From contig JACPFR010000052.1 in the NCBI GenBank assembly GCA_016182905.1, positions 6,739 through 70,738 of the forward strand: a stretch of DNA of 64,000 bases, read 5' to 3'. Source of the stretch: Elusimicrobiota bacterium. Its GTDB lineage: Bacteria; Elusimicrobiota; Elusimicrobia; UBA1565; UBA9628. The translations under genes were made by a program, and so were the position numbers. The notes below the pieces were generated by a model. It was not told where the DNA came from, searched no databases, and saw only the letters and a list, made by a program, of their open reading frames with translations. Shown piece after piece: positions 20,579-61,005 of the stretch (position 1 is its first letter; every line of letters starts with the position of its first letter).

Positions 20579-20700
20579 GGCGACATGGTAGCCCGGACCG
20601 GCGGCCCCCGACGAGGAGGGAGGTCAACGCCGCGCATTGACTTGAATCATGGGCCCTTCGGGTAAGCGAAAACAGAAAAAAACGGAATGCCTGTCACCGA

Positions 20701-22122
20701 TCAGGAGGTGAAGCGGAAGGTGACGCGGCCCCAGACCTCGGCGGCGCCGGACTTGGCGGCGACGGGCTGGAAGCGCCAGCGGGCGAGGGCCTTGAGGGCG
20801 CGCGTGTCGATGTCGGGGAAGCCCGAGGTCTTCGAGATCACGGCGCCGGGCTTCACCGAGCCGTCGGGCAGGACCTGGAAGCGGACGGTGACGGTCAGGT
20901 CGAGGTTGCGGGTCGCGACCCAGTCCGGGCTCGTGGGCGCCACGCGCGCGAGGATGCGGCGGTCGCCGACCGGGCCGTCGACCGAGAAGGACACGCCTCC
21001 GCCCTCGGGGCCGACGCCGCCGCCGCGCGCCTTGGAGTCGAGGAGGTCGGCGCCGCCGCTGCCGGCTTTGTCTCCGGGGTCGGTGGACTCGGCCAGGGCC
21101 GCGGCCGCGCCGGCCTTGCGCGCGCCGGCGAGCTCGGCCTCGCCCCCGCCTTTTCCCCCGCCCTCGCCGGAGTCGGACTCGCCGAAGGCGCCGCCGTCCC
21201 CGCCCTTGCCCGCGACGGGGCCTCCCGCGGCGGGGCGGCCCTTGCGGGCCGAGCCGCGGCCACTATTAACGTTGGAGGCGTCAGCCGACAACGCTTCGTC
21301 GGGGTCGGCCATCGTCGCGAGCGCCGATGAGAGCTCGGCGCGCTTGGCGGCCTTGGCCGCCTTGGCCTCGGCGGCGAGCCGCCTCCGCTCGGCGAGCGCG
21401 GCGGCGCGCGCCTCGGCGGCCTGCCTCGCGGCCTCCGCGCGGCGCTCGGCCTCGGCGCGGGCGATCGCGGCGCGGCGCTCGCGCTCGGCGGCCTGCTGGG
21501 CCGCGAAGCGGTCTCGCTCCGCCTTGGCCTCCGCCGCCCTCTCGGCGGCGATGCGCCTCTTCTCGGCCGCGAGCTCGATGGCGGCGGCCTTCGCGGCGGC
21601 CGCCTTCTCCGCCTCCACGGCGCGGGCGGCGCGGTCGCGCTCGGCGCGCAGGCGCTTCGATTCGGCCTGCGCCTCGCGCGCGAACCTCACGGCCTGCGCG
21701 TCCGCCTTGGGCCCGGCCAGCGGGCGGGGTTTGGGCGCGGCCTTCGCTTTGTGCACGGTCGTGCCGGGCTTGTTCACCTTGGACTTGACCGCGGCCGGCT
21801 TCTTCACCGGCTTGGGCTTGGGCGGCGGGTCGACCGCGCCGCGCTGGACCTTCTCGCGCTCGAACTCGCCCGGTCCGTGCTTCGGCGGCAGGTTGGAGCC
21901 GTCGCCGCCCGGGCTCAGCTCGGGGGCCATCACCGGCTGGACGATGGGCGGCAGCGGTATGTCGGCGACGAATTCGATGGGGACGGCCTTTTCCGGCGCC
22001 TTGAGCCCGCCCCACTCGATGACGGGGTTGAAGGTCAGCAAGGCGCCGTGCGCGATGACGGCCGCGAGGTAGAACGGCGCCTCGTGGAACCAGTCGGGCT
22101 CGATGTGCTCACGCCATGACAT
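20701..22122 (-). CDS. TonB/TolA-family energy transducer
   Basis: N-terminal anchor (FYLAAVIAHGALL). A KPKP segment is followed by ~110 aa of Ala/Glu/Arg/Lys helical repeats (AERAAEAKAERDR...) and a Gly-rich linker. The C-terminus is TonB-like (V.V.F.V..DGSV....I.K.SG....D..A..A...W.F.P). ATG at 22122 was chosen inside the 843-aa ORF. Confidence 0.82.
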   Translation of the reverse strand: MSWREHIEPDWFHEAPFYLAAVIAHGALLTFNPVIEWGGLKAPEKAVPIEFVADIPLPPIVQPVMAPELSPGGDGSNLPPKHGPGEFEREKVQRGAVDPPPKPKPVKKPAAVKSKVNKPGTTVHKAKAAPKPRPLAGPKADAQAVRFAREAQAESKRLRAERDRAARAVEAEKAAAAKAAAIELAAEKRRIAAERAAEAKAERDRFAAQQAAERERRAAIARAEAERRAEAARQAAEARAAALAERRRLAAEAKAAKAAKRAELSSALATMADPDEALSADASNVNSGRGSARKGRPAAGGPVAGKGGDGGAFGESDSGEGGGKGGGEAELAGARKAGAAAALAESTDPGDKAGSGGADLLDSKARGGGVGPEGGGVSFSVDGPVGDRRILARVAPTSPDWVATRNLDLTVTVRFQVLPDGSVKPGAVISKTSGFPDIDTRALKALARWRFQPVAAKSGAAEVWGRVTFRFTS

Positions 22123-37207: not shown

Positions 37208-37831
37208 ATGCCGAAGCTTTTCGTCAGCGATCATCCGCTCGTCCAGGACAAGCTCTCGCGCCTGCGCGACAGGAACACCAAGCCCGAGGATTTCCGCCGC
37301 CTGATGGCCGAGGTGGCCATGCTGATCGGCTGCGAGGTGCTCAAGGGCGTGCGCACGCGCAAGACGACGGTCCGTACGCCGCTTCAGACCGCGCCGGCCC
37401 TGATCCTCGACCAGCCGCTGACCTTCGTCGCGGTCCTGCGCGCGGGCCTGGGCATGACGCCGGGCCTGCTGGAGCTGGCGCCGAAGGCGTCCATCGGCCA
37501 CATCGGCCTCTACCGCGACGAGAAGACGCTCGAGCCCGTCCAGTACTACGTCCGCCTGCCCAAGAACATCTCGGGGCACTTCGTCGTGCTGTGCGACCCG
37601 ATGCTCGCCACCGGCGGCTCCGCCTCCGAGTCGATCCGCATCCTCAAGGCGCACGGCGCGAAGAACATCGCCCTGCTCACCTTGCTCTCCTCCCGGCGCG
37701 GCGTGGCCCGCATCCACAAGGACCACCCCGACGTCCCGGTGTACACCGCGGTGGTGGACTCCGTCCTCAACGCGAAGGGCTACATCGTCCCCGGCCTCGG
37801 CGATGCCGGCGACCGCCTCTTCAACACCTGA
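37208..37831 (+). CDS. upp: uracil phosphoribosyltransferase
   Basis: DHPLVQDKLS.LRD..T....FR.L..E...L......VAVLRAGLGM......IGHIGLYRDE.TL.PV.YY..LP....G..V.L.DPMLATGGSA......LK..GA..I...YIVPGLGDAGDRLFNT. Confidence 0.93.
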   Translation: MPKLFVSDHPLVQDKLSRLRDRNTKPEDFRRLMAEVAMLIGCEVLKGVRTRKTTVRTPLQTAPALILDQPLTFVAVLRAGLGMTPGLLELAPKASIGHIGLYRDEKTLEPVQYYVRLPKNISGHFVVLCDPMLATGGSASESIRILKAHGAKNIALLTLLSSRRGVARIHKDHPDVPVYTAVVDSVLNAKGYIVPGLGDAGDRLFNT

Positions 37832-37862
37832 TACGAGCCCGCGCTCCTCGTAAGAAATAAAA

Positions 37863-37886
37863 AGCCCCGACCATGAGGTCGGGGCT
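37863..37886 (-). terminator. intrinsic terminator of repeat-peptide gene A (may also stop upp read-through)
   Basis: agccccgacc-atga-ggtcggggct, a 10-bp GC stem. On the minus strand it is followed by TTTTTATTTC. Confidence 0.75.
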
Positions 37887-37907
37887 CACGCTTCGCTGGC
37901 GATCCGC

Positions 37908-38132
37908 TCAGCCGCACTTGTTCGGCCACACGCACGTCGTCACCGGGCCGGACGCGATCACGGGGGCCGGGACGCTCTTGCAAGTCTTGGGCCACACGCA
38001 GGGCTGGAACTGGGCCACGACGGGGGCCGGGGCGGACTTGCACGTGTTCGGCCACACGCAAGGGCGGAACTGGGCGGTGGCCTGAGGGGCCGGCGTCGCC
38101 GTCAGGAACGTCGCTAGAATCAAAGTCATCAT
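37908..38132 (-). CDS. small repeat peptide A (74 aa): hydrophobic N-terminus + three C-V-W-P-x-x-C units
   Basis: MMTLILATFLTATPAPQATA / QFRPCVWPNTCKS / APAPVVA / QFQPCVWPKTCKS / VPAPVIASGPVTT / CVWPNKCG. A strong SD (GGAAGGAGGA) lies 7 nt upstream. The repeats differ at synonymous sites. The gene has its own terminator. Confidence 0.75.
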   Translation of the reverse strand: MMTLILATFLTATPAPQATAQFRPCVWPNTCKSAPAPVVAQFQPCVWPKTCKSVPAPVIASGPVTTCVWPNKCG

Positions 38133-38211
38133 TTTCGTGTCCTCCTTCCTTCTGAAGACAGAGTAACTCTTGCCTCGCGCCGGCCTGGAGGACGCCTGTC
38201 AATTTTGGAAC

Positions 38212-38239
38212 TTGATCCCGCTCACTTGATCGCGCTCAA
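38212..38239. promoter_or_regulatory. two abutting FNR/CRP-like half-conserved boxes upstream of peptide gene A
   Basis: TTGATcccgCTCAC (38212-38225) and TTGATcgcgCTCAA (38226-38239), compared with the consensus TTGAT-N4-ATCAA. They lie 80-107 nt upstream of the ATG at 38132. Confidence 0.4.
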
Positions 38240-38340
38240 TGGTTCGGGCCCTTCCGCGGGGAGCAGGAATTGCGTTTCCCTCCATTTTAGTTCCGCGCCG
38301 GAGGTGAAATGAACCGATACGCAATCGCTGAATTGCCGCC

Positions 38341-38364
38341 GGAACTCGCACCGGTGCGAGTTCC
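38341..38364. repeat. perfect 24-bp palindrome in the spacer between peptide genes A and B
   Basis: ggaactcgcacc|ggtgcgagttcc is self-complementary with no loop. Confidence 0.6.
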
Positions 38365-38390
38365 TCCCTCCTCGCGGCCGGCCAAAGAAG

Positions 38391-38418
38391 GGGAGCCTCC
38401 GAGGGGTCGGAGGCTCCC
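38391..38418 (-). terminator. intrinsic terminator of repeat-peptide gene B
   Basis: gggagcctccga-gggg-tcggaggctccc, a 12-bp stem. On the minus strand it is followed by CTTCTTTGG. Confidence 0.7.
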
Positions 38419-38444
38419 GTACGTCGCGCCGGTTCGAGGTCGGC

Positions 38445-38654
38445 TTACAGAGCGATGAGGCTCGGAGCGGCTTTCTTCTTCCCGCAGGTCTTGGGCCAGA
38501 CGCAGGTCGAGAACTGGGCGACGACCGGGGCCGGGGCGGTTTGGGGCGCGGGAGCGACCCGGCAGGTGTTGGGCCACACGCAGGGACGGAACTGAGCCGT
38601 CTTCGGCGCGGGAGCGGCGTTGAACAGCGAGAGCGTCAGGATGAGGTTGATCAT
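38445..38654 (-). CDS. small repeat peptide B (69 aa): hydrophobic N-terminus + two C-V-W-P-x-x-C units
   Basis: MINLILTLSLFNAAPAPKT / AQFRPCVWPNTCRV / APAPQTAPAPVV / AQFSTCVWPKTCGK / KKAAPSLIAL. ATG at 38654 was chosen within the longer ORF by homology of the N-terminus to peptide C. Confidence 0.7.
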   Translation of the reverse strand: MINLILTLSLFNAAPAPKTAQFRPCVWPNTCRVAPAPQTAPAPVVAQFSTCVWPKTCGKKKAAPSLIAL

Positions 38655-38711
38655 GGAGACAGTGTACTCCGCCCCCGAAAAACCCCCTAGGAGGACGGTC
38701 AATGCCGTCTT

Positions 38712-38725
38712 TTGATGCTCGTCAT
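38712..38725. promoter_or_regulatory. degenerate FNR-like box upstream of peptide gene B
   Basis: TTGATgctcGTCAT. Its centre is 64.5 nt upstream of the ATG, the same spacing as the perfect box upstream of gene C. Confidence 0.3.
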
Positions 38726-38779
38726 TAATGTGCCCGCAATCGGGCCGACACGATCCGTTCAAACGGCGTCATAAAAAGA

Positions 38780-38807
38780 AGAAGACCCCGAGGGGTCGGG
38801 GTCTTCT
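38780..38807 (-). terminator. intrinsic terminator of repeat-peptide gene C
   Basis: agaagaccccga-gggg-tcggggtcttct, a 12-bp stem. On the minus strand it is followed by TCTTTTTAT. Confidence 0.75.
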
Positions 38808-38839
38808 CACGGCGCCGGTTCGAGGTCGGCTTTAAAGTC

Positions 38840-39100
38840 TCAGGCTTTCTTGCCGCACTTGCGCGGGTACACGCAGGTGGTGAACTGGGCGACTTCGACC
38901 ACCGGGGCGGTCTCGGTCTTGCACACGTTCGGCCACACGCAGGGCCGGAACTGGGCGACGGTCACGGGAGCCGGAGCGGTTTGGGTCGCGGGAGCGACCC
39001 GGCACACGTTGGGCCACACGCAGGGCCGGAACTGGGCCGTCTGGGTCGCCGGGGCGGGGTTGAAGGTCGAGAGCGAGAGCGTCAGAATCAGGTTGATCAT
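38840..39100 (-). CDS. small repeat peptide C (86 aa): hydrophobic N-terminus + three C-V-[WY]-P-x-x-C units
   Basis: MINLILTLSLSTFNPAPATQT / AQFRPCVWPNVCRV / APATQTAPAPVTV / AQFRPCVWPNVCKT / ETAPVVEV / AQFTTCVYPRKCGKKA. ATG at 39100. Confidence 0.72.
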   Translation of the reverse strand: MINLILTLSLSTFNPAPATQTAQFRPCVWPNVCRVAPATQTAPAPVTVAQFRPCVWPNVCKTETAPVVEVAQFTTCVYPRKCGKKA

Positions 39101-39157
39101 GCATACAGTATAACGCGCATGATTGTAACTTCCGATGAGATGGGACAACCTGGAAGC

Positions 39158-39171
39158 TTGATGTTTATCAA
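39158..39171. promoter_or_regulatory. perfect FNR/CRP-family palindrome TTGAT-GTTT-ATCAA upstream of peptide gene C
   Basis: An exact match to the FNR consensus TTGAT-N4-ATCAA. It lies between the regulator stop (39231) and the peptide C start (39100). A TATACT hexamer is at 39107-39112 (minus strand). Confidence 0.6.
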
Positions 39172-39230
39172 TTGATCTAGGTCAAAGGTCCTAGATCGGC
39201 TGGGCCGCGGGCCCAGAGGAACTCTGAGCC

Positions 39231-39938
39231 TTAGGACGCAGAACCGGCGAGCGCGCGGAGGCGCTCTTCGGAGAGGATCAGGAGATCCTTCTCCTTCTTG
39301 CGCAGGACGTCGCGCTCCTCGAAGTCCTTGAGCAGGCGCACCGTGGTCTCGATGGTGAGGCCCGCCATCTCGGCGAGATCGCGGCGCTTGATGCCGGCGA
39401 CGATCGGGTAGGGCTTCTTGGGCGCCATCATGCGGATCAAGGTGTCGGCCAGGCGGCCGCGCGCGGGCTTGAAGGCGATGTCGCGCGCCTTGTTCTCGCC
39501 CCGGCGCACGTCCTTGGCGAGCTCCTTGAGCAGGGCGTGGGAGGCGGGCGGATACTTGGCGAGGAAGTTGTAGAAGGTGGTCTTGTCGATCATCGACACG
39601 ATGCTGGGCTCGAGGGCCTCGCCGGTTGCGGTGTAGGCGCCCTCGTCGGAGAGCAAGGTCACATGGCCTAACAGGTCGCCGGGCGACTCGACGCGGGTGG
39701 TGAGCTGCTGGCCGGTGCGGCTCGACTTGTAGACCTTCACCTTGCCCGTGCAGACGACATAGACGCCCTGGGGCATCGCGCCTTCGTGGAAGACCACCTC
39801 GCCGCGCTTGTGCGGGTGCGCGAGGCGGATCTCCCGCCAGGCCTTCTTCGACTCCTTCGTGCCGAGGAGCTCGTAGAAACAGTTCTTCTTAAAGGGGCAC
39901 CAATCGCAATTGGGCGCGTCTCGCTTCGAGTAAGCCAC
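39231..39938 (-). CDS. Crp/Fnr-family transcriptional regulator, FNR-like (N-terminal Cys cluster)
   Basis: N-terminal C11-X2-C14-X5-C20 (NCDWCPFKKNC). A cNMP-binding-like beta-roll follows (FHEGAMPQGVYVVCTGKVKVY......G.LLG). The C-terminal HTH GLTIETTVRLLKDF resembles E. coli FNR GLTVETISRLLGRF. Confidence 0.85.
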   Translation of the reverse strand: MAYSKRDAPNCDWCPFKKNCFYELLGTKESKKAWREIRLAHPHKRGEVVFHEGAMPQGVYVVCTGKVKVYKSSRTGQQLTTRVESPGDLLGHVTLLSDEGAYTATGEALEPSIVSMIDKTTFYNFLAKYPPASHALLKELAKDVRRGENKARDIAFKPARGRLADTLIRMMAPKKPYPIVAGIKRRDLAEMAGLTIETTVRLLKDFEERDVLRKKEKDLLILSEERLRALAGSAS

Positions 39939-39954
39939 AAGTCATTATAGCAAC

Positions 39955-40827
39955 TTAAGAGCGAGGAGGCAGGATGCGCATCTCTTCGGCGCCGCTTTTG
40001 CCCACTCCGGCGCCGGGGAACACCGCGCCGTAGCGGCCCGAGGCGTCGACGCCCCGGGCGACGGTCGCGAGGCTTCCCGACATGGCGGCGCGGGCGCCGT
40101 CGGACCTCAGGAGATGGGCGCCCTCCCACCGGCCGCCGTTCAAGGTCGTGCGCGTCGCGAGCGCGGGGCGTCCCTCGTTGCCGTGCCGCAGTCCTCCCTC
40201 GAGGCGGAACTGGTCGATCGAATGGACTCTCTTAAAGGAAAGGGGCTTCAGCGAGCCGTCCGCAGCGAGCAGGCCGGGGACCGGGAACTGGTAGCCGGCG
40301 GCGGCGCCGTTCCGCCCGGCGCGGCGCACGGAGAGCCGGGCGGAGCCGTCGGGCAGGGCGCGCAAGGTCAGGGCGAAGCGGTCGCCGGGGCGCAGGTAGA
40401 GGTCGTCGGGGGCGCCGACGGCGGGGTTCTGCCAGCCGCCCTTGCTCGTGCGCCAGTACACGCGGTAGGCGAACTCGCCGGTGTCGCGGCCGTCCGCGCC
40501 GTAGACGTGGTCCCAGATCAGGCCGGCGTCGACCTCGGCCCCTTCGGCGTGCAGGCCGAGGTAGACGTCGGGGCGGTCGAGCGGGCCGGATTTATAGGAC
40601 TCCTCTCCGGGGGCGGCGCGGTGCTCGCGCGCGGGGTCGAAGACGGGCTTGGGCAGGACGCCCCAGGCCTCGAGGCCCTCGAACGCGGCGCCCTCGGGCG
40701 AGACGACCTTGCGGAACCACGCCCCGCGGGCTTTCTCGACGATCGCGGACGCGGACGCGGACGCGTATTCGAGCTCTCCGGCCGAGGCCGGCATCACCGC
40801 CGACAGCACGAGGCAGACGAAAGTCAT
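39955..40827 (-). CDS. secreted hypothetical protein
   Basis: Signal-like N-terminus MTFVCLVLSAVMPASA. 290 aa with no recognised motif. Located 16 nt upstream of the regulator gene. Confidence 0.55.
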   Translation of the reverse strand: MTFVCLVLSAVMPASAGELEYASASASAIVEKARGAWFRKVVSPEGAAFEGLEAWGVLPKPVFDPAREHRAAPGEESYKSGPLDRPDVYLGLHAEGAEVDAGLIWDHVYGADGRDTGEFAYRVYWRTSKGGWQNPAVGAPDDLYLRPGDRFALTLRALPDGSARLSVRRAGRNGAAAGYQFPVPGLLAADGSLKPLSFKRVHSIDQFRLEGGLRHGNEGRPALATRTTLNGGRWEGAHLLRSDGARAAMSGSLATVARGVDASGRYGAVFPGAGVGKSGAEEMRILPPRS

Positions 40828-40844: not shown

Positions 40845-42083
40845 TTAGCGCAGGGCGACGCGGTCGGAGTACTTGGCGACGGTGGAGCGGAAGGCCGGGA
40901 GGTCGCGCACCGCCTCGAGCTCGGTGTCGGTCTTGGCCTGCATCACGAAGCGGCGCAGGTCGTTGGGGCCGGCGCAGGACTTGAAGGACTCGTCGAGGGC
41001 GCGCAGCGCGACGGCGGTCTTGCCGGACATCGCGTAGGCCATGGCGATCTGGTAGTGCGCCGACGGGTTCATCGGGTTCTGCTGCAGGGCCTTCTGCAGG
41101 GAGCGGATGGCGACGTCGGACTGGCCGAGCTTGTTGTAGGCCGTCCCGATTCTTTCATAAACGCCCGCGATCTGCGGCGCGCCCAGGGTGAGGCGCTCTT
41201 GGTCGAGGGACAGGGCCTCGTTGTACGCGGAGACCGCGGACAGGTAGCGGCGGAACTTGAACTCGACGTTGCCCTGGGCGATCTTCTCGAGGACCTCGGC
41301 GTCCTGCGCCGGGGCGGCGGGTTTGGGAGCGGTGTCGCGGACGGCGTCGCGCATCTCCTCGCCGCGGGCGCCGATGTCCGCGACCATCGTGCCGTCCTCG
41401 TCGGATCCGATGCCGAGGGCCTTGCGGGAGGCGCCGTCGGCGATCAGCGGGGCGAAGGCGGGGTCGCGGCGGACGGCCTCGCGCAAAGTCTTGGCCTGGC
41501 CGTTCTTCATGGCCTTGGTCATCGCCAGGTCGATGTTGGAGACCGCCTTGGCGGTGTCGCCCATCTTCAGTCTGAGGCGCGCGGCGTTCATGGGAATCAG
41601 GACCTTGCTCGGGGCGGCCCGGAAGGCCATCTTGTAGGCGTCGAGCGCCTTGTCGTAGGACTGCACGGCCTCGTAGCACAGGGCCATCGAGAAGTACAGG
41701 CGGGAGGCGTCGGGCAGCTCCTTCAGCGACGCGTCGAGGCTCAGGGCCATCGCGTAGGCGTCGATCGCGGACTGGGCGTCGTCGCGGTCGGCGGCCTCGG
41801 TCGAGCCGAGCTTGAAGCCGCGCTGGTAGTGGGCCCAGCCGAGCAGGAAGTAGGTCGAGACCGAGCCTTCCTTGCGCACGGCCTTGTTGAACGTCGAGAT
41901 CGCGGCGGAGGTCTCGCCGGCTTCCAGGTTCGCGAGGCCCGCGGACATCAGGCGCTGGGCCTCGGGGTTGGCCTTCGACTTGGGGGCCTTCTTGGTTTTC
42001 GCGTTCGCCGGAGGGGTGCACAGAAGAGCGGCCAACGCGATGGTGAGGACGGTCCAGCTCGTCTTCGTCATGTTTCTCTTCAT
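40845..42083 (-). CDS. secreted TPR-repeat protein
   Basis: ATG at 42083 gives MKRNMTKTSWTVLTIALAALLCTPPANA (the ORF extends to 42140). Several TPR-like repeats are present (A...Y..AL.L.P....A....G..Y). Confidence 0.72.
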   Translation of the reverse strand: MKRNMTKTSWTVLTIALAALLCTPPANAKTKKAPKSKANPEAQRLMSAGLANLEAGETSAAISTFNKAVRKEGSVSTYFLLGWAHYQRGFKLGSTEAADRDDAQSAIDAYAMALSLDASLKELPDASRLYFSMALCYEAVQSYDKALDAYKMAFRAAPSKVLIPMNAARLRLKMGDTAKAVSNIDLAMTKAMKNGQAKTLREAVRRDPAFAPLIADGASRKALGIGSDEDGTMVADIGARGEEMRDAVRDTAPKPAAPAQDAEVLEKIAQGNVEFKFRRYLSAVSAYNEALSLDQERLTLGAPQIAGVYERIGTAYNKLGQSDVAIRSLQKALQQNPMNPSAHYQIAMAYAMSGKTAVALRALDESFKSCAGPNDLRRFVMQAKTDTELEAVRDLPAFRSTVAKYSDRVALR

Positions 42084-42178
42084 GCCTAAAGTATAGCGGC
42101 GGCCATAGAGGCGCACATGGGGCGCGGGGCCTGGGCCCATCTAGGCCCTTGGGCCTAGGCCGGGGCGGCCGCGTACAG

Positions 42179-43640: not shown

Positions 43641-44057
43641 CTATCCCGTGCGGCTCAGTCCGATGGCTTTGGCCCATTCGGGCGTCGGCCGGATCAGCTT
43701 CCGCTCCCTGAGGTCAAGCAGCGCGATCACGAACTCCGCCACGCAGGAGACGCTGCCGTCCGCCGTCATCATGACCTGCTCCACGCGGCCGATCTTCCCG
43801 CGGTACTCGAGCGTCTTTGAGCGGATCACGACGCGTTCTTTGCCCCGGATCTCGCGTTTGAAACGCAGTTTGACCTCGAGCAAAGTCGGCCCTATGCCGC
43901 TTTCGAGCACTTCCTTTCGTCCGAAGCCGTTGCCCGTGATCCAATCCCAGCGGGCTTCTTCAAAAAGCTCCAGGTAGGCGGCATTATTGATGTGGCCGAA
44001 GAGATCGAGATGGCGATCCTCGATGGTCGTCTTATATTCATGCGTATCCATTTTCAA
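43641..44057 (-). CDS. hotdog-fold acyl-CoA thioesterase (4HBT/YbgC-like)
   Basis: DLFGHINNAAYLELFEEARWDW is the catalytic-region pattern of 4HBT-type thioesterases. 138 aa. Confidence 0.75.
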   Translation of the reverse strand: MKMDTHEYKTTIEDRHLDLFGHINNAAYLELFEEARWDWITGNGFGRKEVLESGIGPTLLEVKLRFKREIRGKERVVIRSKTLEYRGKIGRVEQVMMTADGSVSCVAEFVIALLDLRERKLIRPTPEWAKAIGLSRTG

Positions 44058-44064
44058 TCCAACT

Positions 44065-45369
44065 CTAAGGCGCCGCCAAGTCGCTTCCCGACGCGCTCTG
44101 ACAGCGGAACCATGCTTGATACCAATTGACCATCGATAGGCTCGCCTTTTCCGTGCGATCTTTCAGCATGTCTTCCGCGTCGATGAGATTGTTGATGGTC
44201 GTCTTCCCGCTCCCGAGCCGCTTGAATTCCAAATCGGCGACCGTTCGGGCCTCGGAGATGCTTCGTCGCCTCTCCTCGTACTCTTGTCTCTTGATATCCA
44301 ACGCCGCCCTCGATTCGGAAAGATCGGCGTGAGATAAGGAGATAGTCAGGGCTCTCTTTTGCTCGAGGGCATGGCGCTGCGCCGCCGCCGCTCGTGCTGC
44401 GGCCAGGCCTGCTCCGCCGTCGAATAAAGACCATGAGAGCTGAACGCCGGCCAAGTCATAATTGGACTTCGTGACGAGGTCGAGATTCGTATAGCCGTGC
44501 CGCAGGAACCCATGGACCTTGGGCAGATACTCGGCCTTCCGAGCCTTCTTTGACAGGCCAAGGGCCTCCATCTCCTTGTCGAGCGCTCGGATGTCCTCGC
44601 GGTCGACGGGCTGGGAATCCCCGGAGCAATCGGATGATCGAGGCAGCTCCTCGGGAAGGTCGTTCGGAACGATGGGAGCGCTCTCCCCGGTCAAGCTCGC
44701 GATCGAATCGGCGAGATGATCCTCCCCCTTTTGCAGGTCCCGGATTCCTTGAGCCGCGTCGTCGATCCCGAGCTTGATCTTGAGCAGATCGGCTTCGCCC
44801 ATTCCTCCGAGCTCATAGATGCGCCGGATCTCGCGCAAGCGGTCCTTCAGGTTCGCCGCGTATTTTTCCAATGCCCGCCGTCTCGCCCTGAGCTCTAGAG
44901 CGCGAAGATAATAATCGACGGCCTTGGCCTGCGTTTCTTTCACCTGCCGCGAGCTTTTGAGACTCGCCGCCGCCGTCATGCGCTCGGAGGCCGGGACGTC
45001 GTAGAGCATGTTCGCGGGGTCGAAAAAGGCTTGCTGCAATGTCACCGAGCCCGACAGTAAATCCGACCCCAATTTTATCGGAGGAATCGCAGTCCCCCCG
45101 AGAGGAGGAAGCCGCAGCGCCTGGTCGGTGAGCAGACGCGTGTAGCCGAATCCAGCGACCAGCTTGGGGATATAGGTCTGCCGCCGCGCCGACGCCTCTT
45201 TGGCTCGGAATTCCTCGGCCGACGACCGGGCGGCTTTGACTTCGGGTCCTTGCGCCGCCATGTTCAACAGCTGCGCGATGGAGACCCCCGAGCCGTCCGC
45301 GTATGCCGGCGTCTTGAGAAGGGCGCAGTGGCCCAATAGCAGCGCGAGTAAAAAGATGGGCTTTCTCAT
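44065..45369 (-). CDS. TolC-family outer membrane efflux protein
   Basis: Signal peptide MRKPIFLLALLLGHCALL and duplicated helix-barrel repeats. Last gene of the RND operon, with a start overlap to the RND gene. Confidence 0.8.
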   Translation of the reverse strand: MRKPIFLLALLLGHCALLKTPAYADGSGVSIAQLLNMAAQGPEVKAARSSAEEFRAKEASARRQTYIPKLVAGFGYTRLLTDQALRLPPLGGTAIPPIKLGSDLLSGSVTLQQAFFDPANMLYDVPASERMTAAASLKSSRQVKETQAKAVDYYLRALELRARRRALEKYAANLKDRLREIRRIYELGGMGEADLLKIKLGIDDAAQGIRDLQKGEDHLADSIASLTGESAPIVPNDLPEELPRSSDCSGDSQPVDREDIRALDKEMEALGLSKKARKAEYLPKVHGFLRHGYTNLDLVTKSNYDLAGVQLSWSLFDGGAGLAAARAAAAQRHALEQKRALTISLSHADLSESRAALDIKRQEYEERRRSISEARTVADLEFKRLGSGKTTINNLIDAEDMLKDRTEKASLSMVNWYQAWFRCQSASGSDLAAP

Positions 45370-48300
45370 ATCCGGGCTTCCTTCTGGAATGAAAGTTTAT
45401 AGACCGATGGAATGACGAGAAGGGTCATGAGGGTCGATACCGAGAGTCCGGTGATGATCACCCAGGCGAACGGCGGCCAAAGGGTGGAGGAGCTCATCGT
45501 CATCGGCAGCAGCTCGACGATGGTCGCCGCCGCGGTCAAGATGATCGGACGCATCCGGCGCTGTATCCCTTCCGTGATCGCCTGGTCGAGCGGGACGCCC
45601 TCGTTTCTCCGGTGATCGATGTAATCGAGGAGAAAGATGCCGTTGTGGATCACGGTTCCCGCCAGGGCGAACAGGCCGAGGAGCGTCATGAATCCGAAGG
45701 TGCTCCCCGTGACGAGCAGGCCCGGCACCGCTCCGACCACGCACAGAGGGATCGTGAGGAGGATGATCCCTATCCGTCTGAAGGAGTTGAACTCGAACAA
45801 AAGAGAGATGAGAAGGAGAAACATGGCGGTGGGGAGGACGGCGAAGATCTTCTTCTGGGAGTCCTTCGATTCCTCCATGGCGCCGCCGAGCTCGATTCGC
45901 ACCCCCTCTTCGCGGTCGAGCGTCTTCAACTGCTTGGCCGTGCCGGCGGCGACGTCGTTCTCGGAATATCCGTCCGCCAGCTCGCCATAGATGTAGACGA
46001 CGGGCGTTCGATTCATGCGCTCCAGGACGGACGGGCCGAACTGAAAACCGCTGTGAACGAGCGTCTTGACCGTGATATCGTCGGTCCGCGTCGAGCCGAG
46101 ATAGCTCTCCTCCAGCTCGGAAAACGTGGAGTTCTCGTTCTGCTTGGAGATCAAGGTCATCGCGTACGGATCCGTTCCGCCGCGAAAGGTCGTCGCCGGC
46201 ACTCCGGCGGTCCGTGAAAGGATGACGGCTGAGACTTCGGCCCTGGTGAGGCCGTAGAGGCCTGCGGCGCTGTCGTTGACGTCGAGTTTATAGTCGAGAG
46301 CGCCGACGCCCAGCGTGGATCGGACTTTCGCGATCCCTTTCGCCTCGCGCACCACGGCGAAGACGTTTTGCGCCGCTTCCTGCAGCTTGAGAGGGTCGTC
46401 CGAGAATACGCGGACTTCGATAGGCGCTTTCACCGGAGGCCCCTGGCTCAATTCCCGCGCGATCAGCGTTCCGAAGGGAACCAAGGCCGACAGTTCGTCT
46501 TGCTTCTCTTTTTTGAACGCGATCGCGCTCTTGGCGTCGAGCGTTCTCACGATCATCTGGGCGACGTGGGGCGCGTTGGGCTCGCGAGGAAGGTTGTAAT
46601 AAAAGGGTGGAACGCCGCGTCCGATGACGCTGGCGACCGAAACGACCCGTTTATCCTTGCGGATCGCTTCGTCGAGGCGCTGGGTTATCTCCTTTGTCGT
46701 CTGATAGTGTGTTCCCTCCGGGAGCTGCACATCCATGATCACCAGATCGCGATCCGCGTTCGGGAAGAACTGCTTCTTCACGAAGCCGAAGCCGAGCATG
46801 GCGATCGACACGGCGGCGAGCGCGATGATGGAAATGAGCCGCGGATGGGAATGAACCAGCCGCCCAAGCCATTCTCCGAGCGGAACGACGAAGCTCCACT
46901 CGCGGGCTTTCCCCCTCTTGAGCATCTTCGCCGCGAGCAAGGGCGTGATGAAGATGCAGAAAAGATAGCTCCCGCCCAGGCCGAGCGCGGAGACCACCCC
47001 GATGTCCCGCGTGAAATCGGCGACGCTCCCCTCGGCGATCAGCATCGGGAGGAAGGCGGCGATGGTCGTCAGCGTTCCGGCGAGCAGAGGGATGAGATAC
47101 TCCTTGCGGGTCCTCTCGCCGGCCTCGACGGGATCCAGTCCCTGGTCCAGCTTCGATTGGATCCCGTCCACGATCACCACGACATTGTCGACCAGGAGGC
47201 CGATCGCCAGGATGAACGCCGCGATGGAGATCTGATGGATGATGCCGCCCAACTGGGAGAAGATGCCGAAGGCAATGGCCGTGACGAGCGGGACCTGGAT
47301 CGCGACGAGCGAGCCGACGCGAACGCCGAGCATGAGCATCAGCGTTCCGCCGACCAGCAGGATCGCCTTCAGCAGATCGAGTCCGATCTCATGAATCCGT
47401 TCTTCCACGTAGCGAGGCTGAAAGCTGACCTCCTCTATCTTTGCGCCGCTCTTTTTGAACGCCTCGGTGTTCTTGAACTCGTCGACTATCTTTCGGATAT
47501 CCTCGCCGAAGGCCTGAAGGTTCACTTTCTTCTGAGGCACGACCCCGATCCCCAGGGCTTCGCGCCCGTTGAAGAGCATGCTTTCCCTGACCGGGAGAGC
47601 AGTCGTCCTCGAGACGCTCGCCACCTCCGACAGCAGATGCGTCTCGCCGGATTTCAAGACGACCGGGAATTTGCGGAGCTCCTCGGCGGACTTGTAGAAT
47701 GAGTTGGTGACGACGCTCACTTTCCGATCGCCGAGCCGGACGTAGCCGGACGGGACGTTCGCGTTGCCGCCTTTGAGCTGGTTCAGGAAGTTGGCGATCG
47801 ACACGCCCTGCCGGCCGATCTTCTTGTAATCCAGCAAGATGCTCAATTGCTCGCCGGGAGAGCTCACTTCATCGACGGACTTCACCCTGGGATGAAGCTG
47901 CAATTTGTCTTTCAACGCGCGCGCCAGATCGTAGAGCTGCAGCCGGTCGGCGCCCCCGTACAGAGTCAGAAAGATCGCGTCTTGATCGAAGATCTCGCGA
48001 TTCAGATCCGGCTTCCAAACCGTATCGGGCAGCTCCAATTGAGCCCGGTCCAGCGCTCGTTGGACCTTATCCCAGGCGACCTCGGTTCTATCGCTCGCGA
48101 CGGTGTCCTTCAACTCGATCTCGAAGAAGCTGAGGTCGGTGCGGATCCGCGTGCGGATCTCTTTGATCTCCTCGACCTTGGCCAGCTCGTCCTCGATGGG
48201 CTTGACGACGAGCCGTTCCGCCTCCGCGGGAGTCGAGCCGGGAAAAATGACGACGACGTTCCCCGACCGCGCGGAGAGACGGGGGTCTTCCTCCCTGGGC

Positions 48301-48404
48301 GTGGTGAACCAGCGGAACACCCCGTTGAGGACCAAGAGCCACGCGATCGCGAGGAGAAGCCGCTGCCAGGCGAACACTCCGATCCCCTTTTGCGTTGAAA
48401 TCAT
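45366..48404 (-). CDS. RND efflux transporter permease (AcrB/HAE family)
   Basis: 1012 aa with 12-TM, two-large-loop architecture. Typical blocks are present (AIGLLVDNVVVIVD, SALGLGGSY, LLGLFALAGTVIHNGIFLLD). Confidence 0.9.
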   Translation of the reverse strand: MISTQKGIGVFAWQRLLLAIAWLLVLNGVFRWFTTPREEDPRLSARSGNVVVIFPGSTPAEAERLVVKPIEDELAKVEEIKEIRTRIRTDLSFFEIELKDTVASDRTEVAWDKVQRALDRAQLELPDTVWKPDLNREIFDQDAIFLTLYGGADRLQLYDLARALKDKLQLHPRVKSVDEVSSPGEQLSILLDYKKIGRQGVSIANFLNQLKGGNANVPSGYVRLGDRKVSVVTNSFYKSAEELRKFPVVLKSGETHLLSEVASVSRTTALPVRESMLFNGREALGIGVVPQKKVNLQAFGEDIRKIVDEFKNTEAFKKSGAKIEEVSFQPRYVEERIHEIGLDLLKAILLVGGTLMLMLGVRVGSLVAIQVPLVTAIAFGIFSQLGGIIHQISIAAFILAIGLLVDNVVVIVDGIQSKLDQGLDPVEAGERTRKEYLIPLLAGTLTTIAAFLPMLIAEGSVADFTRDIGVVSALGLGGSYLFCIFITPLLAAKMLKRGKAREWSFVVPLGEWLGRLVHSHPRLISIIALAAVSIAMLGFGFVKKQFFPNADRDLVIMDVQLPEGTHYQTTKEITQRLDEAIRKDKRVVSVASVIGRGVPPFYYNLPREPNAPHVAQMIVRTLDAKSAIAFKKEKQDELSALVPFGTLIARELSQGPPVKAPIEVRVFSDDPLKLQEAAQNVFAVVREAKGIAKVRSTLGVGALDYKLDVNDSAAGLYGLTRAEVSAVILSRTAGVPATTFRGGTDPYAMTLISKQNENSTFSELEESYLGSTRTDDITVKTLVHSGFQFGPSVLERMNRTPVVYIYGELADGYSENDVAAGTAKQLKTLDREEGVRIELGGAMEESKDSQKKIFAVLPTAMFLLLISLLFEFNSFRRIGIILLTIPLCVVGAVPGLLVTGSTFGFMTLLGLFALAGTVIHNGIFLLDYIDHRRNEGVPLDQAITEGIQRRMRPIILTAAATIVELLPMTMSSSTLWPPFAWVIITGLSVSTLMTLLVIPSVYKLSFQKEARI

Positions 48405-52921: not shown

Positions 52922-54183
52922 GCCGGGCCCTCCTCCTCGCGGCGGCGCTCCTCCTCCCCCTCTCCGCCGCGGCGCAGGCCGGGCGGGCGATCGCCTTGCC
53001 CGAGGCGTACAAGCTCGCGCTCGCCCGCAGCGAGGAGATCGCGATCTCCGGCGCGACCTACGAGGAGACCTTGGCGAAGACCGACGAGATATTCTCCCGC
53101 GTGCTGCCTCGCGTCTCGCTGATGGGCACCGAGACGCTCCAGCACACGCCCAAGGGCGCGAGCAACTTCTTCCTCCAGCCCAACCGCGAGCAGGGCTGGG
53201 TGACGGCTCATCAGCCGCTGTTCAGCGGCCTGCGCGAGTTCCTCGCGTACCGGGCGTCGAAGGACCTCGGCCGCGCCGCGGAGCTCTCGCTGGAGCGCGC
53301 CAGGCAGCTCCTGTACGGCGACGTCGCGCGCGCCTACCTGGACCTGCTCACCGCGCAGGACGACATCCGGATCCGAGACTCTCTGGTCGCGATAACCCAA
53401 AATCGCGTGACGGACCTCAAGGAGTTCCGCAAGGTCGGCCGGGCCCGGCCCAGCGAGATGCTCGCCGCGGAGTCCCAGCTCGCCGCGAACCTCGCGCAGC
53501 TGGAGAGTTCCCGCGCGGCGGAGCAGGTGGCGCAGTTCAAGCTCGCCTTCCTGACCGGGCTCGACGAGCGCCTGGCCCCGGCTCCGATCCCCGAGTCCGC
53601 GGCGGTGGTCCCCCCGCTCGACGCGGCCCTGGCGAAGGCCCGCGCCCGCGCCGACGTGGAGGCGCGGCGCGAGGAGGCGTCCTCCGCGGAGCTCTCGGTC
53701 AAGGTCGCCGCGCGCGCGCGCTGGCCCGTCATCGGGATCGACGCGAACTACTACTTCCAGCGCCCCCCCAGCTTCACCTCCGACGTGAGATGGGACGCGA
53801 CGATCACCGGCTCGCTTCCTCTTTACTCCGGCGGCGAGATCGGCGCCCAGACCCGTCAGCAGGAGGCGCGCTTGAAGGCCCGGCGCGCGTCCCTGGCCGA
53901 GGGGGTCCGCCTCGCCGAGCTCGAGGCCCGCTCGGCGCATCAGCGGCTCCAGTCCTCGGTCGCCGTCACCGCCGCGCTCGACAAGGCCGCGAGGCTGGCC
54001 GAGGACAACGCCAAGGCCCAGGCCGAGGACTACCGCCTCGGGCAGGTGACGAACCTCGACGTCCTCGGCAGCCTCAACGTCCTTCAGCAGACGCGCCTGC
54101 AGCAGAACGCGGCGCGCATCGACGCATACTGGTCCCGCGTGCAGCTCGAAGTCGCCGCGGGCGTCCCCGGAGGCTCTCTGTGA
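52918..54183 (+). CDS. TolC-family outer membrane efflux protein
   Basis: Signal peptide MSRALLLAAALLLPLSAAAQA and duplicated TolC-type repeats. The start overlaps the tetR stop. Confidence 0.8.
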   Translation: MSRALLLAAALLLPLSAAAQAGRAIALPEAYKLALARSEEIAISGATYEETLAKTDEIFSRVLPRVSLMGTETLQHTPKGASNFFLQPNREQGWVTAHQPLFSGLREFLAYRASKDLGRAAELSLERARQLLYGDVARAYLDLLTAQDDIRIRDSLVAITQNRVTDLKEFRKVGRARPSEMLAAESQLAANLAQLESSRAAEQVAQFKLAFLTGLDERLAPAPIPESAAVVPPLDAALAKARARADVEARREEASSAELSVKVAARARWPVIGIDANYYFQRPPSFTSDVRWDATITGSLPLYSGGEIGAQTRQQEARLKARRASLAEGVRLAELEARSAHQRLQSSVAVTAALDKAARLAEDNAKAQAEDYRLGQVTNLDVLGSLNVLQQTRLQQNAARIDAYWSRVQLEVAAGVPGGSL

Positions 54184-57100
54184 CCTTATCCGACCTTTCG
54201 ATCAAGAACCCCGTCTTCGCGTGGATGCTGATGTTCGCCCTCATGATATTCGGCTGGATCGGCTACGGCCGCATGGGCGTCTCCCAGATGCCGGACGTGG
54301 ACTTCCCCATCGTCAACATCGCGGTCTCGTGGGAGGGCGCGGCGCCTGAGATCATGGAGACCGAGGTCGTCGACATCATCGAGGACGCCGTCACCTCCGT
54401 GCAGGGCGTCAAGGAGATCACCTCCTCGTCGAAGCTCGGCAACGCCACGATCACGATCGAGTTCGAGCTCGACCGCGGCATCGACGTCGCCCTGCAGGAG
54501 GTCCAGACCAAGATCGCCCAGGCCCAGCAGCGCCTGCCCAAGGACATGGACCCGGCCATCGTCACGAAGGTCAACCCGGAGGACAACCCCATCATGTGGC
54601 TGGCGCTGTCCGGCGACGTGCCGGTCAAGGACCTGATGGTCTACGCGCAGGACCACCTCAAGAACCGCTTCCAGACCGTGCCCGGCGTCGGCGAGGTCCT
54701 GCTCGGAGGCCTCGTGCCCCGCAACCTCCGGGTCTGGCTCGACGCGGACAAGATGCGCGCCCGGCAGATCACGGTGGAGGACATCCTCGCGGCGATCCGC
54801 CGCGAGCACGCCGAGGTCCCGGCCGGCCAGATCGAGACCGACGTCAAGGAGTTCAACGTCCGCACGCTCGGCGAGATATCCGATCCGAATCAATTCGGCG
54901 AACTCCTCATAACCCAGCGCGGCGGCGCCCCGATCCACATCCCGATAGCGCTCAAGGAAGTGGCTCGCATCGAGGACGGCCTCGCGGACGTGCGCCGCAT
55001 CTCTCGCGTGGGCCTCAAGCGCGCCGTCGGCCTCGGCATCCGCAAGCAGCGCGGCGCCAACGCCGTCGAGATCGCCACGCGCATCCGGAAGAAGATGGAG
55101 GAGACGAAGGGCAGCCTGCCCAAGGGCATGAGCCTCGGCGTGCGCTTCGACTCGACGAAATTCATCAAGGAGTCGGTGAGCAACCTCACGCACCACCTGC
55201 TCCTCGCGGCGGTGCTGACGTCGCTGGTGTGCTGGCTGTTCCTCGGCTCCTGGTCTTCCACCTTGAACGTCCTGCTGGCGATCCCGACCGCCGTGCTCGG
55301 CACCTTCATCGTGACCTACTTCCTCGGGTTCACGCTGAACTCCTTCACCTTGCTCGGGCTCACCCTCTCCATCGGCATCATCGTCGACGACGCGATCATG
55401 GTGCTGGAGAACATCGTGCGCCACCGCGAGCTCGGCCAGGACAAGCTCACCGGCGCCGTGTTCGGCGCCCGCGAGATCACCTTCGCCGCGATGGCCGCGA
55501 CGGTCGCCGTGCTGGCGATCTTCATGCCCGTCGTGTTCATGAAGGGCATCATCGGCAAGTTCTTCTTCCAGTTCGGCGTGACGATCTCGGCGGCGGTGTC
55601 GTTCTCCCTGCTCGAGGCGCTGACGCTCGCCCCGATGCGCTGCTCCCAGTTCCTCGAGGTCGGCGGCCACGGCAACGCCCTGATCCGCGCGGTCGACGCG
55701 GGCTTCGCGTGGTGCGCCTCGGCGTACCGGCGCCGGCTCGAGTGGACGCTCGCCCATCGCTGGACCGTCGTCGGCTTCGGCGTGCTGTTCTTCGCCGCTT
55801 CGCTGATCAGCGTCAAGAAGATCCGCAAGGAGTTCGTGCCCGCGCAGGACCAGGGCATGTTCCTCATCCGCATGGAGACGCCCGTGGGCTCCTCGTTCGA
55901 GTACACCGACGCGAAGTTCAAGGAAGCCGAGACCTGGATGATGAAAAACCCGGCCGTCGACGGCTACTACTCGGCGGTCGGCGGTTTCCAGGGCGGCGAG
56001 GTCAACGCCGGCATGCTGTTCGTCACGCTCAAGGACCTCCCGGACCGCGGGCTGAACGGGGCGGGAAGGACGACCACCCAGGGCGACGTGATGAAGGACA
56101 CCCGGAAGGCCCTGAACGCGATCCCCACCTTGCGCGCCCTGATCCTGGACCTGTCCCAGGGCGGGTTCTCCGCCTCGCGCGGCTTTCCCATCGAGTTCAC
56201 GATCCGCGGACCGGACTGGGACACCTTGATCAAGACCGCCGTCGAGTTCAAGGGACGCCTGGAGAAGACCGGCTCGCTGCTCGACGTGGACACCGACTAC
56301 AAGAGCGGCATGCCCGAGGTCCGAATTTATCCCGACCGCGCGAAAGCTTACTTAAGAGGCGTCTCCATCGAGTCGATCGGGACGACGATCAACGCGATGA
56401 TCGGCGGCGTGCGCGCCGGATTGTTCACCGACAGCGGCCGCCGCTACGACGTGCGCGTGCGGACCGAGGCGAAGCACCGCCTCGCGCCCGAGGACATCAA
56501 CAAGTTCTACGTGCGCAACAACCGGGGCGAGATGATCCGCCTCTCCGAGGTCGTCCGCCTCGAGACGAAGCCCTCCCTGCTCGCGATCACGCGCAAGGAC
56601 CGCGAGCGCGCGATCGGCATCTACGCCAACGTCGTCCCGGGCAAGTCGCAGGCCCAGATCCTGGCCGACATCGAGAAGCTGGGCAAGGAGACCTTGCCGG
56701 ACGGCTACCACCTCGTGTTCTCCGGCTCGTCGAAGACCTTCAAGGAGTCGTTCCAGAGCCTGCTGTTCGCCTTGGTCCTCGGCATCCTCGTCGCGTACAT
56801 GGTCCTCGGCGCGCAGTTCAACAGCTTCGTCCACCCGGTCACGGTCCTGCTGGCGCTCCCGTTCAGCCTCTCCGGCGCCTTCCTGACCTTGTGGGCGTTC
56901 GACAAGAGCCTCAACATCAACTCGATGATCGGCCTGCTCCTGCTGATGGGCATCGTGAAGAAGAACTCGATCCTGCTCGTCGACTTCACGAACCAGCGCC
57001 GCGACGAGGGCCTCGAGCCCCGGGCGGCGCTGCTCGACGCCTGCCCGGTGCGCCTGCGCCCCATCCTGATGACCTCGATCGCGACGATCTCCGCCGCGGT

Positions 57101-59947: not shown

Positions 59948-59948
59948 C

Positions 59949-60995: not shown

Positions 60996-61005
60996 GCCGA
61001 TCGCC

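Follow-up and report, generated by a model that had tools for sequence, protein, structure and literature searches.

What do three small tandem genes of an uncultured bacterium encode, and what switches them on? The genes lie on the minus strand of a 64,000-nucleotide stretch of Elusimicrobiota bacterium (the window; assembly GCA_016182905.1, contig JACPFR010000052.1, positions 6,739 to 70,738), between upp on the plus strand (end at 37831) and a CRP/FNR-family regulator gene on the minus strand (39231..39938). Gene A (37908..38132) encodes a 74-residue peptide that starts with MMTLILATFL and carries three copies of a short Cys-loop unit, the last ending in CVWPNKCG. Gene B (38445..38654, ATG at 38654) encodes 69 residues with two units, followed by the C-terminal tail GKKKAAPSLIAL. 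Gene C (38840..39100, ATG at 39100) encodes 86 residues with the N-terminus MINLILTLSLS and three units, and its orthologues end in …VAQFTTCVYPRKCGKKA. The eight units follow the pattern A-Q-F-x-[PT]-C-V-[WY]-P-x-x-C, with the third unit of gene A preceded by GPVTT instead of AQF. Each gene was directly followed by its own intrinsic terminator on the minus strand, a G+C-rich hairpin with a T-run (37862..37887 after gene A, 38391..38418 after gene B and 38779..38808 after gene C), and five terminator-like sites were found in the peptide-gene region against 1.5 expected. A preliminary description, made from the letters of this DNA, had reported the three open reading frames (ORFs) in this place, the eight units with AQF before seven of them, a terminator for each gene, and synonymous differences between the two full repeats of gene A (cct/ccc, ccg/ccc, acg/act, tcc/agc and gtc/gtg), and all of these were confirmed in the sequence. 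Our analysis leans towards the explanation that the genes probably encode stand-alone, FNR-activated, Sec-exported peptides, in which a disulfide-closed F-x-x-C-V-W-P-N-x-C loop would be the active element.

The first step of the answer is that the peptides belong to a large and strongly constrained family. A word-indexed search returned 147 relatives, all unnamed or annotated as hypothetical, and every named source was a metagenome-assembled genome of Elusimicrobia. A HMMER profile search of 1.84 billion cluster representatives returned 198 clusters (50% identity) at E ≤ 1e-3, all of them 50-155 residues long and containing the Cys-loop unit. In a scan of one genome per GTDB species, 38 loci were found, of which 36 were labelled Elusimicrobia or Elusimicrobiota, and the remaining two came from ‘Candidatus Endomicrobium trichonymphae’ of the same phylum and from an unclassified ‘bacterium’. 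The family thus occurs in Elusimicrobia and, as described below, on some phage or mobile contigs. Both Cys residues and the central Pro were present in all of the 167 units compared from related loci, while V, W and N were retained in 93%, 88% and 82% of them. The A, Q and F ahead of the loop were conserved at 84-89%, with Ala at position -1 in 149 units and Gln at +1 in 145. At the DNA level the fourfold-degenerate codons of the units varied freely (for example GTG/GTC/GTA/GTT and CCC/CCG/CCT), and the Nei-Gojobori ratio of nonsynonymous to synonymous substitution rates (dN/dS) was 0.09 for C-type, 0.10 for B-type and 0.20 for A-type orthologues in blocks that had been picked for their conservation, so that the values give lower bounds on constraint and not whole-gene estimates. 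The linkers between units were rich in Ala, Pro, Val, Thr and Glu and contained many insertions and deletions. Because the gene order C-B-A recurred in eight genomes and C-A in four, the paralogues A, B and C must be old.

C-x5-C loops numbered 693 against 26 C-x4-C loops, and the latter variants retained W-P. The number of Cys residues was even in 255 of 264 members. Some members (P0259, P0289, P0305, P0223, P0323, P0202 and the peptide of L098; P-numbers denote family proteins, L-numbers loci or contigs) had, interspersed among their standard units, a second type of C-x5-C loop, P-C-[PG]-x-G-x-[VL]-C, of which GPCPLGVVC is one instance. AlphaFold predicted for the 86-residue peptide only an N-terminal helix (residues 3-12) and no globular fold, with a predicted local distance difference test score (pLDDT) of 50, which fits loops on flexible linkers and is otherwise uninformative. 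Pfam and NCBIfam scans of the three peptides assigned no family, their best matches (E = 0.047 and 0.23) being far below the cut-offs, and literature searches on the motif, on Elusimicrobia ribosomally synthesised and post-translationally modified peptides (RiPPs) and on small cysteine-rich proteins of Elusimicrobia gave no relevant description of the peptides. Judged by these comparisons, the three genes are real coding genes of a family undescribed in Pfam, NCBIfam or the literature searched. The same two points had been proposed in the preliminary description, and both stood once relatives were searched, neighbourhoods compared and orthologues aligned: about 200 clusters of relatives were found, dN/dS was low, the Cys pairs were kept in related loci, and the unit matched neither a named domain family nor anything in the literature searched.

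The second step concerns the promoters. The upstream DNA of about 50 family genes was aligned and the geometry was measured in about 45 promoters. A proximal box of the form TTGAC-N4-nTCnT had its centre 29.5 bp before the first base of the -10 element in most promoters (range 28.5-30.5), and the -10-like hexamers across the family were TATACT, TACACT, TATCCT or TACAAT. One or two further boxes, nearer to TTGAT-N4-ATCAA, lay farther upstream, at 23 and 36-37 bp from the proximal box. All promoter elements of the three window genes were on the minus strand. In gene C, two abutting FNR-type boxes (39158..39185; TTGACCTAGATCAA and TTGATAAACATCAA) had their centres 37 and 23 bp upstream of the proximal CRP/FNR-type box (39135..39148; TTGTCCCATCTCAT), whose centre was 29.5 bp before the -10 hexamer TATACT (39107..39112) and 41.5 bp before the A of the ATG; the ATG followed the hexamer by 6 nt, without room for a Shine-Dalgarno sequence. 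Gene B showed one upstream box (38712..38725; ATGACGAGCATCAA) 23 bp upstream of the proximal box (38689..38702; TTGACCGTCCTCCT), which was again centred 29.5 bp before the -10 hexamer, TACACT (38661..38666), and 41.5 bp before the ATG, the latter following the hexamer by 6 nt. Upstream of gene A, two abutting boxes (38212..38239; TTGAGCGCGATCAA and GTGAGCGGGATCAA) preceded a proximal box (38189..38202; TTGACAGGCGTCCT) centred 30.5 bp before the -10 hexamer TACTCT (38160..38165), with 27 nt from the hexamer to the ATG, including GGAGG (38141-38145). Class II FNR and CRP promoters of E. coli have the activator box centred at -41.5. Since the -10 element occupies -12 to -7 and the spacing is 29.5 bp, the proximal box is placed at this class II position, with the transcription start predicted from the position of the -10 element. 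A sigma-70 scan of the region gave no promoter, as would be expected if the activator box takes the place of the -35 element. An Rfam scan of 37700-39400 gave sub-threshold noise only, hence no riboswitch or small RNA accounts for the conserved upstream DNA.

The boxes were concentrated at the peptide genes. The pattern TTGAY-N4-ATCAA with at most one mismatch gave ten matches in the window against 1.1 expected, seven of them in the three peptide promoters. Other one-mismatch boxes of the FNR type were located at 20637-20650, 43870-43883 and 55803-55816. The first of these, 37 nt before an ORF at 20687..22072, was tried as a class II promoter and rejected since it was without a -10 element at class II spacing. 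The same geometry was also present where no regulator gene was adjacent (L026, L028, L029, L036, L038 and L043) and on a phage-like contig (L051/L157), so that this promoter type is the one feature travelling with the peptide gene.

In the window's lineage, essentially all B- and C-type genes had exactly 6 nt between the -10 element and the ATG, and the distance was 24-50 nt, containing GGAG(G), in gene A and in the genes of more distant lineages. A distance of 6 nt leaves a Shine-Dalgarno sequence no room, and we predict that the A of the start codon is the first transcribed base of genes B and C and that their mRNAs are leaderless. A literature search on leaderless mRNA combined with FNR class II promoters returned nothing. 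The arrangement has also misled gene calling. The promoters of B- and C-type genes are stop-free and can be read through, so that the ORF lists and several database gene calls stretched the 69- and 86-residue genes upstream to 105 and 102 residues (window 38655-38762 for gene B and 39101-39148 for gene C). These extensions are promoter DNA read as protein: in the extended calls ‘YTV’ is the -10 box TAYACTGT, and ‘INDEHQ’ or ‘INERHQ’ is the FNR box. Miscalled database entries with extended N-termini include P0002, P0008, P0108 and P0111.

The presumed activator is encoded next to gene C. The regulator (39231..39938, minus strand) has 235 residues with the cNMP_binding and HTH_Crp_2 domains, and among the 35 loci with sufficient flank, 24 had its gene directly upstream of the peptide genes and in the same orientation. 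Cys11-x2-Cys14-x5-Cys20 and Cys63 were invariant in 27 orthologues, as was the recognition helix TIETTVRLL. The alignment to Aliivibrio FNR started at residue 8 and therefore included the N-terminal Cys region. A CRP-family fold with an N-terminal Cys cluster is, at the sequence level, what characterises an O2 sensor of the FNR type, and the Cys pattern suggests that the regulator holds an Fe-S cluster and senses O2. The adjacent FNR-like gene is very probably the direct activator of the peptide genes, as its position and the type of the boxes indicate.

The third step is where the products go. The N-termini of the window peptides, MINLILTLSLS and MMTLILATFL, are short, hydrophobic and uncharged, with a hydrophobic region of about 10 residues and small residues before Q-F. 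Among the 264 members, about 68% had a neutral N-terminus and 23% (62) were acidic near residue 3; 21 (8%) scored a basic N-terminal region, several of which were gene calls extended beyond the true start. Genuine canonical Sec signal peptides, ending in AxA|Q, were found in place of the odd N-terminus, for example in P0243, P0258, P0259, P0312, P0313 and P0323. Viral and metagenome contigs were then scanned for DNA encoding P-C-V-W-P-N-x-C, and about half of the matches to this 8-residue pattern, being chance matches in non-coding frames, were removed by eye. Seven loci (L044, L074, L076, L086, L119, L151 and L157) encoded pre-peptides consisting of a signal peptide and one unit, with at most 0-4 residues between the unit and the stop codon, and in most of them an AxA site stood directly ahead of Q/G-F/x. 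The junctions and mature parts read …IPARA|QFQPCVWPNICAQ in L044, …SAYA|GFEPCVWPNRC in L074, …NVHA|QLRPCVWPNTCG in L076, …SSSA|QFRPCVWPNTCVQ in L086, …NAMA|QVEPCVWPNRC in L151 and …PAAA|QFKPCVWPNTCAQ in L157, each followed by the stop codon. Such genes show that a signal peptide and a single loop of 11-13 residues can make up an entire gene product; one loop thus looks like a working module, and A|Q looks like a signal-peptidase site. Export, the cleavage site and the disulfides of the window peptides themselves are inferred from these relatives and from the Cys pattern.

Phage-like and mobile contigs carried further members. P0259, which has a signal peptide, three units and the extra loop PCPLGVVC, was encoded in a phage-like replication region, flanked by DnaB and by a ribonucleotide reductase with an intein, and a tblastn search with it against 50,697 GenBank phage records gave no match. 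Three metagenome contigs (L076 167-283, L083 2009-2200 and L098 7765-7950) contained syntenic phage replication modules in the order Cas4-like nuclease (phrog_1706), peptide, DnaB-like primase-helicase, deoxynucleoside monophosphate kinase and DNA polymerase. The peptides of these modules had a single or nearly single unit behind a strong signal or transmembrane segment, and in L076 and L083 the peptide ATG overlapped the stop codon of the nuclease gene. Just upstream of the peptide gene of L098, at about 7960-8040, the stretch …ggtggccgaatggcgagg…gttcgattccgaccctaggc resembles a tRNA gene. Family members that begin with a canonical signal peptide were also present on the phage-like or mobile contigs L042 (10001-10273, a Logan contig), L049/L099, L157/L051 and L044. 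PHROG matches were obtained for L049/L099, a 210-kb IMG/VR contig, and for L157; L157/L051 kept the FNR-type box and the leaderless distance of 6 nt between the -10 element and the ATG. FNR-like boxes occurred in L044, with a transposase and a weak small-terminase match nearby.

Taken in order, the steps of the favoured explanation would be as follows. The adjacent Fe-S-type FNR homologue would bind TTGAY-N4-RTCAA boxes, namely a class II box at -41.5 plus another one or two situated 23 and 36-37 bp further upstream, and would activate each gene separately from them. In genes C and B, transcription would begin at the first base of the ATG and ribosomes would translate a leaderless mRNA, and gene A would have a short leader with GGAGG. 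The hydrophobic N-terminus would act as an atypical uncharged Sec signal peptide and be cleaved off immediately ahead of the first Q-F. Once the peptide is exported, the two Cys residues of each unit would close a 7-residue disulfide loop around V-W-P-N, onto which the aromatic residue three positions before the first Cys may pack. The loop would be the active element, the Ala/Pro-rich linkers would serve as flexible spacers, and the 2-5 loops per chain would provide several doses or multivalency. General machinery (Sec, signal peptidase and thiol oxidation) would be enough, with no dedicated modifying enzyme.

Several points weigh against this explanation. The window N-termini are without a basic residue and 62 of 264 members are acidic near residue 3, which makes a poor Sec signal, and the N-terminal segment could instead be a leader or an anchor. 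The disulfides are inferred from Cys parity and from the predicted export. The pairing of the regulator with the boxes is drawn from adjacency and motif type, and another CRP/FNR paralogue could bind them. The fourth Cys of the regulator is at position 63, unlike Cys122 of E. coli FNR. In addition, a single clade supplied much of the synteny, which may reflect common descent and not function.

The alternative that survives best, unlikely as we rate it, has the exported chains as polyprecursors that would be cut at internal A|Q-F sites into free, disulfide-cyclised peptides of about 12 residues, possibly with an N-terminal pyroglutamate; these may act as diffusible signals or envelope effectors, which the single copies of phages may mimic or exploit. 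The single-unit pre-peptides speak for it, since one loop with 0-4 trailing residues is there the complete product, and so does the retention of Ala at -1 and Gln at +1 before internal units, the same positions that form the signal-peptidase junction in the single-unit forms. The presence of the unit in three syntenic phage replication modules between the Cas4-like nuclease and the primase-helicase, and also in L042, L049/L099 and L157, points in the same direction. Further support may be seen in an OPT-family oligopeptide transporter directly upstream (about 0.2-1 kb, same strand) of the peptide genes in four loci of a second lineage (L026, L029, L039 and L043), with SBP_bac_5 near in L043, but the OPT synteny may be lineage inheritance. 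No protease was conserved beside the peptide genes, internal sites in a soluble chain are not an expected substrate of signal peptidase I, and some units are without AQF. The preliminary description had likened the recurring AQF to a repeated processing site. This comparison held in part, for the single-unit relatives, in which A|Q coincides with an AxA signal-peptidase site. About as unlikely is the specific proposal that (Q)-F-x-P-C-V-W-P-N-x-C is a free, disulfide-cyclised extracellular signal or envelope effector, which Elusimicrobia would release in multiple copies from FNR-induced leaderless polyprecursors and which their phages would produce one copy at a time from replication modules, as mimics or hijackers of the host system.

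Two neighbours were considered as partners in such a scheme and rejected. In the window, a 290-residue secreted protein (39955..40827, minus strand) and a TPR protein with a signal peptide (40845-42140, minus strand) form an apparent operon with the regulator gene, with gaps of 16-17 nt, and TPR adjoined the regulator in 24 loci. The 290-residue protein had no Pfam match; its structure model (pLDDT 90.9) gave the Foldseek top matches 2ifr (E = 6e-8), 8xai and 4hfs, and it resembles scytalidoglutamic peptidase, CPAVM1 and B. subtilis YncM. The fold is thus that of the eqolisins, or glutamic peptidases. As an obligate processing protease the protein was rejected since only about 11 of 42 loci had its gene beside the peptide genes, inserted between those for TPR and FNR, and since the catalytic Gln is seemingly not conserved, a weak profile alignment placing a variable residue of the family where YncM has the Gln of ‘GLQ’. 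The TPR protein showed only TPR matches in Pfam, and it was rejected as an RRNPP-type receptor because it has a signal peptide and no HTH. Signalling of the RRNPP type also requires peptide import by an oligopeptide permease, and OPT is adjacent only in the second lineage.

The neighbourhoods bear on the remaining alternatives too. About 40 proteins across the window, supported by their G+C content at third codon positions, were scanned with Pfam, and neighbours were clustered over 39 loci (±10 kb). In the window's lineage the layout was TPR, (290-residue protein), FNR, peptide gene(s), (metallophosphatase), upp, deoA and PNP, where the genes in brackets occurred in some genomes only. In the second lineage it was thioredoxin-like lipoprotein, NUDIX, OPT transporter, peptide gene(s) and PCMT: the lipoprotein (WCPPC) lay about 3 kb upstream in L029, L039 and L043, and the PCMT methyltransferase, apparently with a signal peptide, was downstream in L026, L039 and L043, with SBP_bac_5 downstream in L043. 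The two main lineages had no neighbour in common. The Pfam matches of the window were to housekeeping genes, to an OEP-HlyD-MacB tripartite exporter (58694-62994, plus strand) and to two RND (AcrB-type) systems (44065-48404, minus strand, and 53790-57332, plus strand); in other genomes, as far as compared, these exporters and the peptide genes showed no synteny.

That the genes are RiPP precursors with remote tailoring enzymes, the N-terminus being a leader and the Cys/Trp units being cores with thioether, Cys-Trp or similar crosslinks, we regard as improbable. An extremely conserved repeated core flanked by AQF does resemble multi-core precursors, and the N-terminus is not a textbook signal peptide. 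However, radical SAM, YcaO, lanthipeptide, MNIO/DUF692, P450, ATP-grasp and C39-ABC proteins were all absent from the roughly 40 window proteins, the preliminary description having noted that no radical SAM, YcaO, lanthipeptide synthetase or peptidase-ABC exporter gene is adjacent, and no maturase was present among the conserved neighbours of the 39 loci or in four further Pfam-listed neighbourhoods, so that no tailoring enzyme was adjacent or conserved nearby in the window and the ±10-kb loci. Nor were the bufferin/MNIO partners DUF692 and DUF2063 or the precursors DUF2282 or BUF_6/12Cys found in the window or related loci. The phage and single-unit copies carry only a Sec signal peptide before the core, which would leave a leader-dependent enzyme without a handle, and the ring size varies between C-x4-C and C-x5-C with W-P kept. 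The RiPP reading is thus disfavoured because the single-unit and phage copies stand alone and the enzymes are missing.

As little probability is given to a thiol-based metal or redox buffer, in which, within the envelope of anoxic cells, the reduced Cys pairs with the nearby Trp would bind soft metal ions, for example Cu(I), or pass on electrons. Two Cys residues and an invariant aromatic residue per unit, with several units per chain, would suit such a role, the predicted response to an FNR-type regulator fits the timing of anoxia, and the thioredoxin-like lipoprotein lies near the peptide genes in the three second-lineage loci named above. The units, however, lack His and Met and match no known metal-site pattern, genes for metal resistance were not consistently adjacent, and metal buffering is difficult to square with the copies in phage replication modules. 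Least probable of all is that the products are small cytoplasmic or membrane-tethered proteins keeping their N-terminal helix, for which the lack of basic residues, the hydrophobic stretch of only about 10-12 residues and the AlphaFold helix at residues 3-12 might be cited, but homologues have a canonical cleavable signal peptide at exactly this position, 10-12 residues are too short for a membrane span, and paired Cys residues in tiny loops are typical of extracytoplasmic peptides. Of the three readings that had been left open at first (unmodified secreted disulfide-loop peptides, RiPPs with distant enzymes and redox- or metal-active peptides), the evidence from relatives with signal peptides, single units and even Cys numbers therefore favours unmodified exported disulfide-loop peptides, and the RiPP reading has lost ground.

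The locus represents a conserved family of small proteins under strong constraint, which among named sources is found only in Elusimicrobia and whose members are missed or miscalled by annotation. A near-textbook FNR class II layout fused to predicted leaderless translation would be a rare regulatory handle in an uncultured phylum, and it is testable in heterologous hosts. The single-unit and phage-borne versions define a minimal Cys loop of about 12 residues that can be synthesised for functional assays. Should the loops prove to be free signals or effectors common to host and phage, diderm bacteria would have gained a new peptide system; as purely structural peptides of the envelope, they would still be a clean example of a new exported mini-repeat family.

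The protein family appears to be undescribed, and each of its components belongs to a known type: a class II FNR promoter, an mRNA predicted to be leaderless, and a disulfide peptide that would be exported by Sec. In shape, the proposed disulfide loop resembles contryphans (C-x5-C) and the loops of Bowman-Birk inhibitors and SFTI, in which a very small ring closed by one disulfide presents an aromatic residue at a Pro turn, but those are eukaryotic, have other loop sequences and show no homology. The short genes with near-identical cores, linkers and conserved core flanks are shared with multi-core RiPP precursors, such as those of cyanobactins, triceptide/XYE-type radical-SAM peptides and bufferins (BUF_6/12Cys), the last of which carry Sec signal peptides. 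They differ in that here no maturase is adjacent or conserved nearby, no precursor family is matched, and the single-unit and phage copies stand alone. Arbitrium AimP and Phr peptides, secreted signalling pro-peptides of phages and Firmicutes, are likewise encoded by tiny genes for a signal peptide and a short mature peptide, some of them in phages, and an oligopeptide transporter is adjacent in one lineage here; they differ from the present family in that no cognate cytoplasmic TPR-HTH receptor is adjacent in our case, in the Cys loop as opposed to a linear 5-6-mer, and in the diderm Elusimicrobia hosts.

Two further parallels come from E. coli. Its heat-stable enterotoxins STa and STb are small Sec-exported pre-(pro-)peptides that are cut by signal peptidase and whose Cys-rich mature part is oxidised in the periplasm, with no RiPP enzyme involved. 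The window peptides are similarly small diderm pre-peptides with predicted Sec export and without a dedicated RiPP enzyme. The toxins, however, are single-copy with two or three interlocked disulfides, whereas the window peptides would form tandem one-disulfide loops and are without a classical basic N-terminal region, and the two have no sequence relation and differ in regulation and biology. In the control region, the likeness is to the class II FNR promoters of E. coli, which have a TTGAT-N4-ATCAA-type box at -41.5 that replaces the -35 element, and the regulator shares the N-terminal C-x2-C-x5-C. The recognition helix of the window regulator reads E-T-T-V-R in place of E--SR in E. coli FNR, and its fourth Cys is at position 63. 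The window promoters differ from those of E. coli in adding one or two boxes, 23 and 36/37 bp further upstream, and in a start predicted to fall on the ATG itself.

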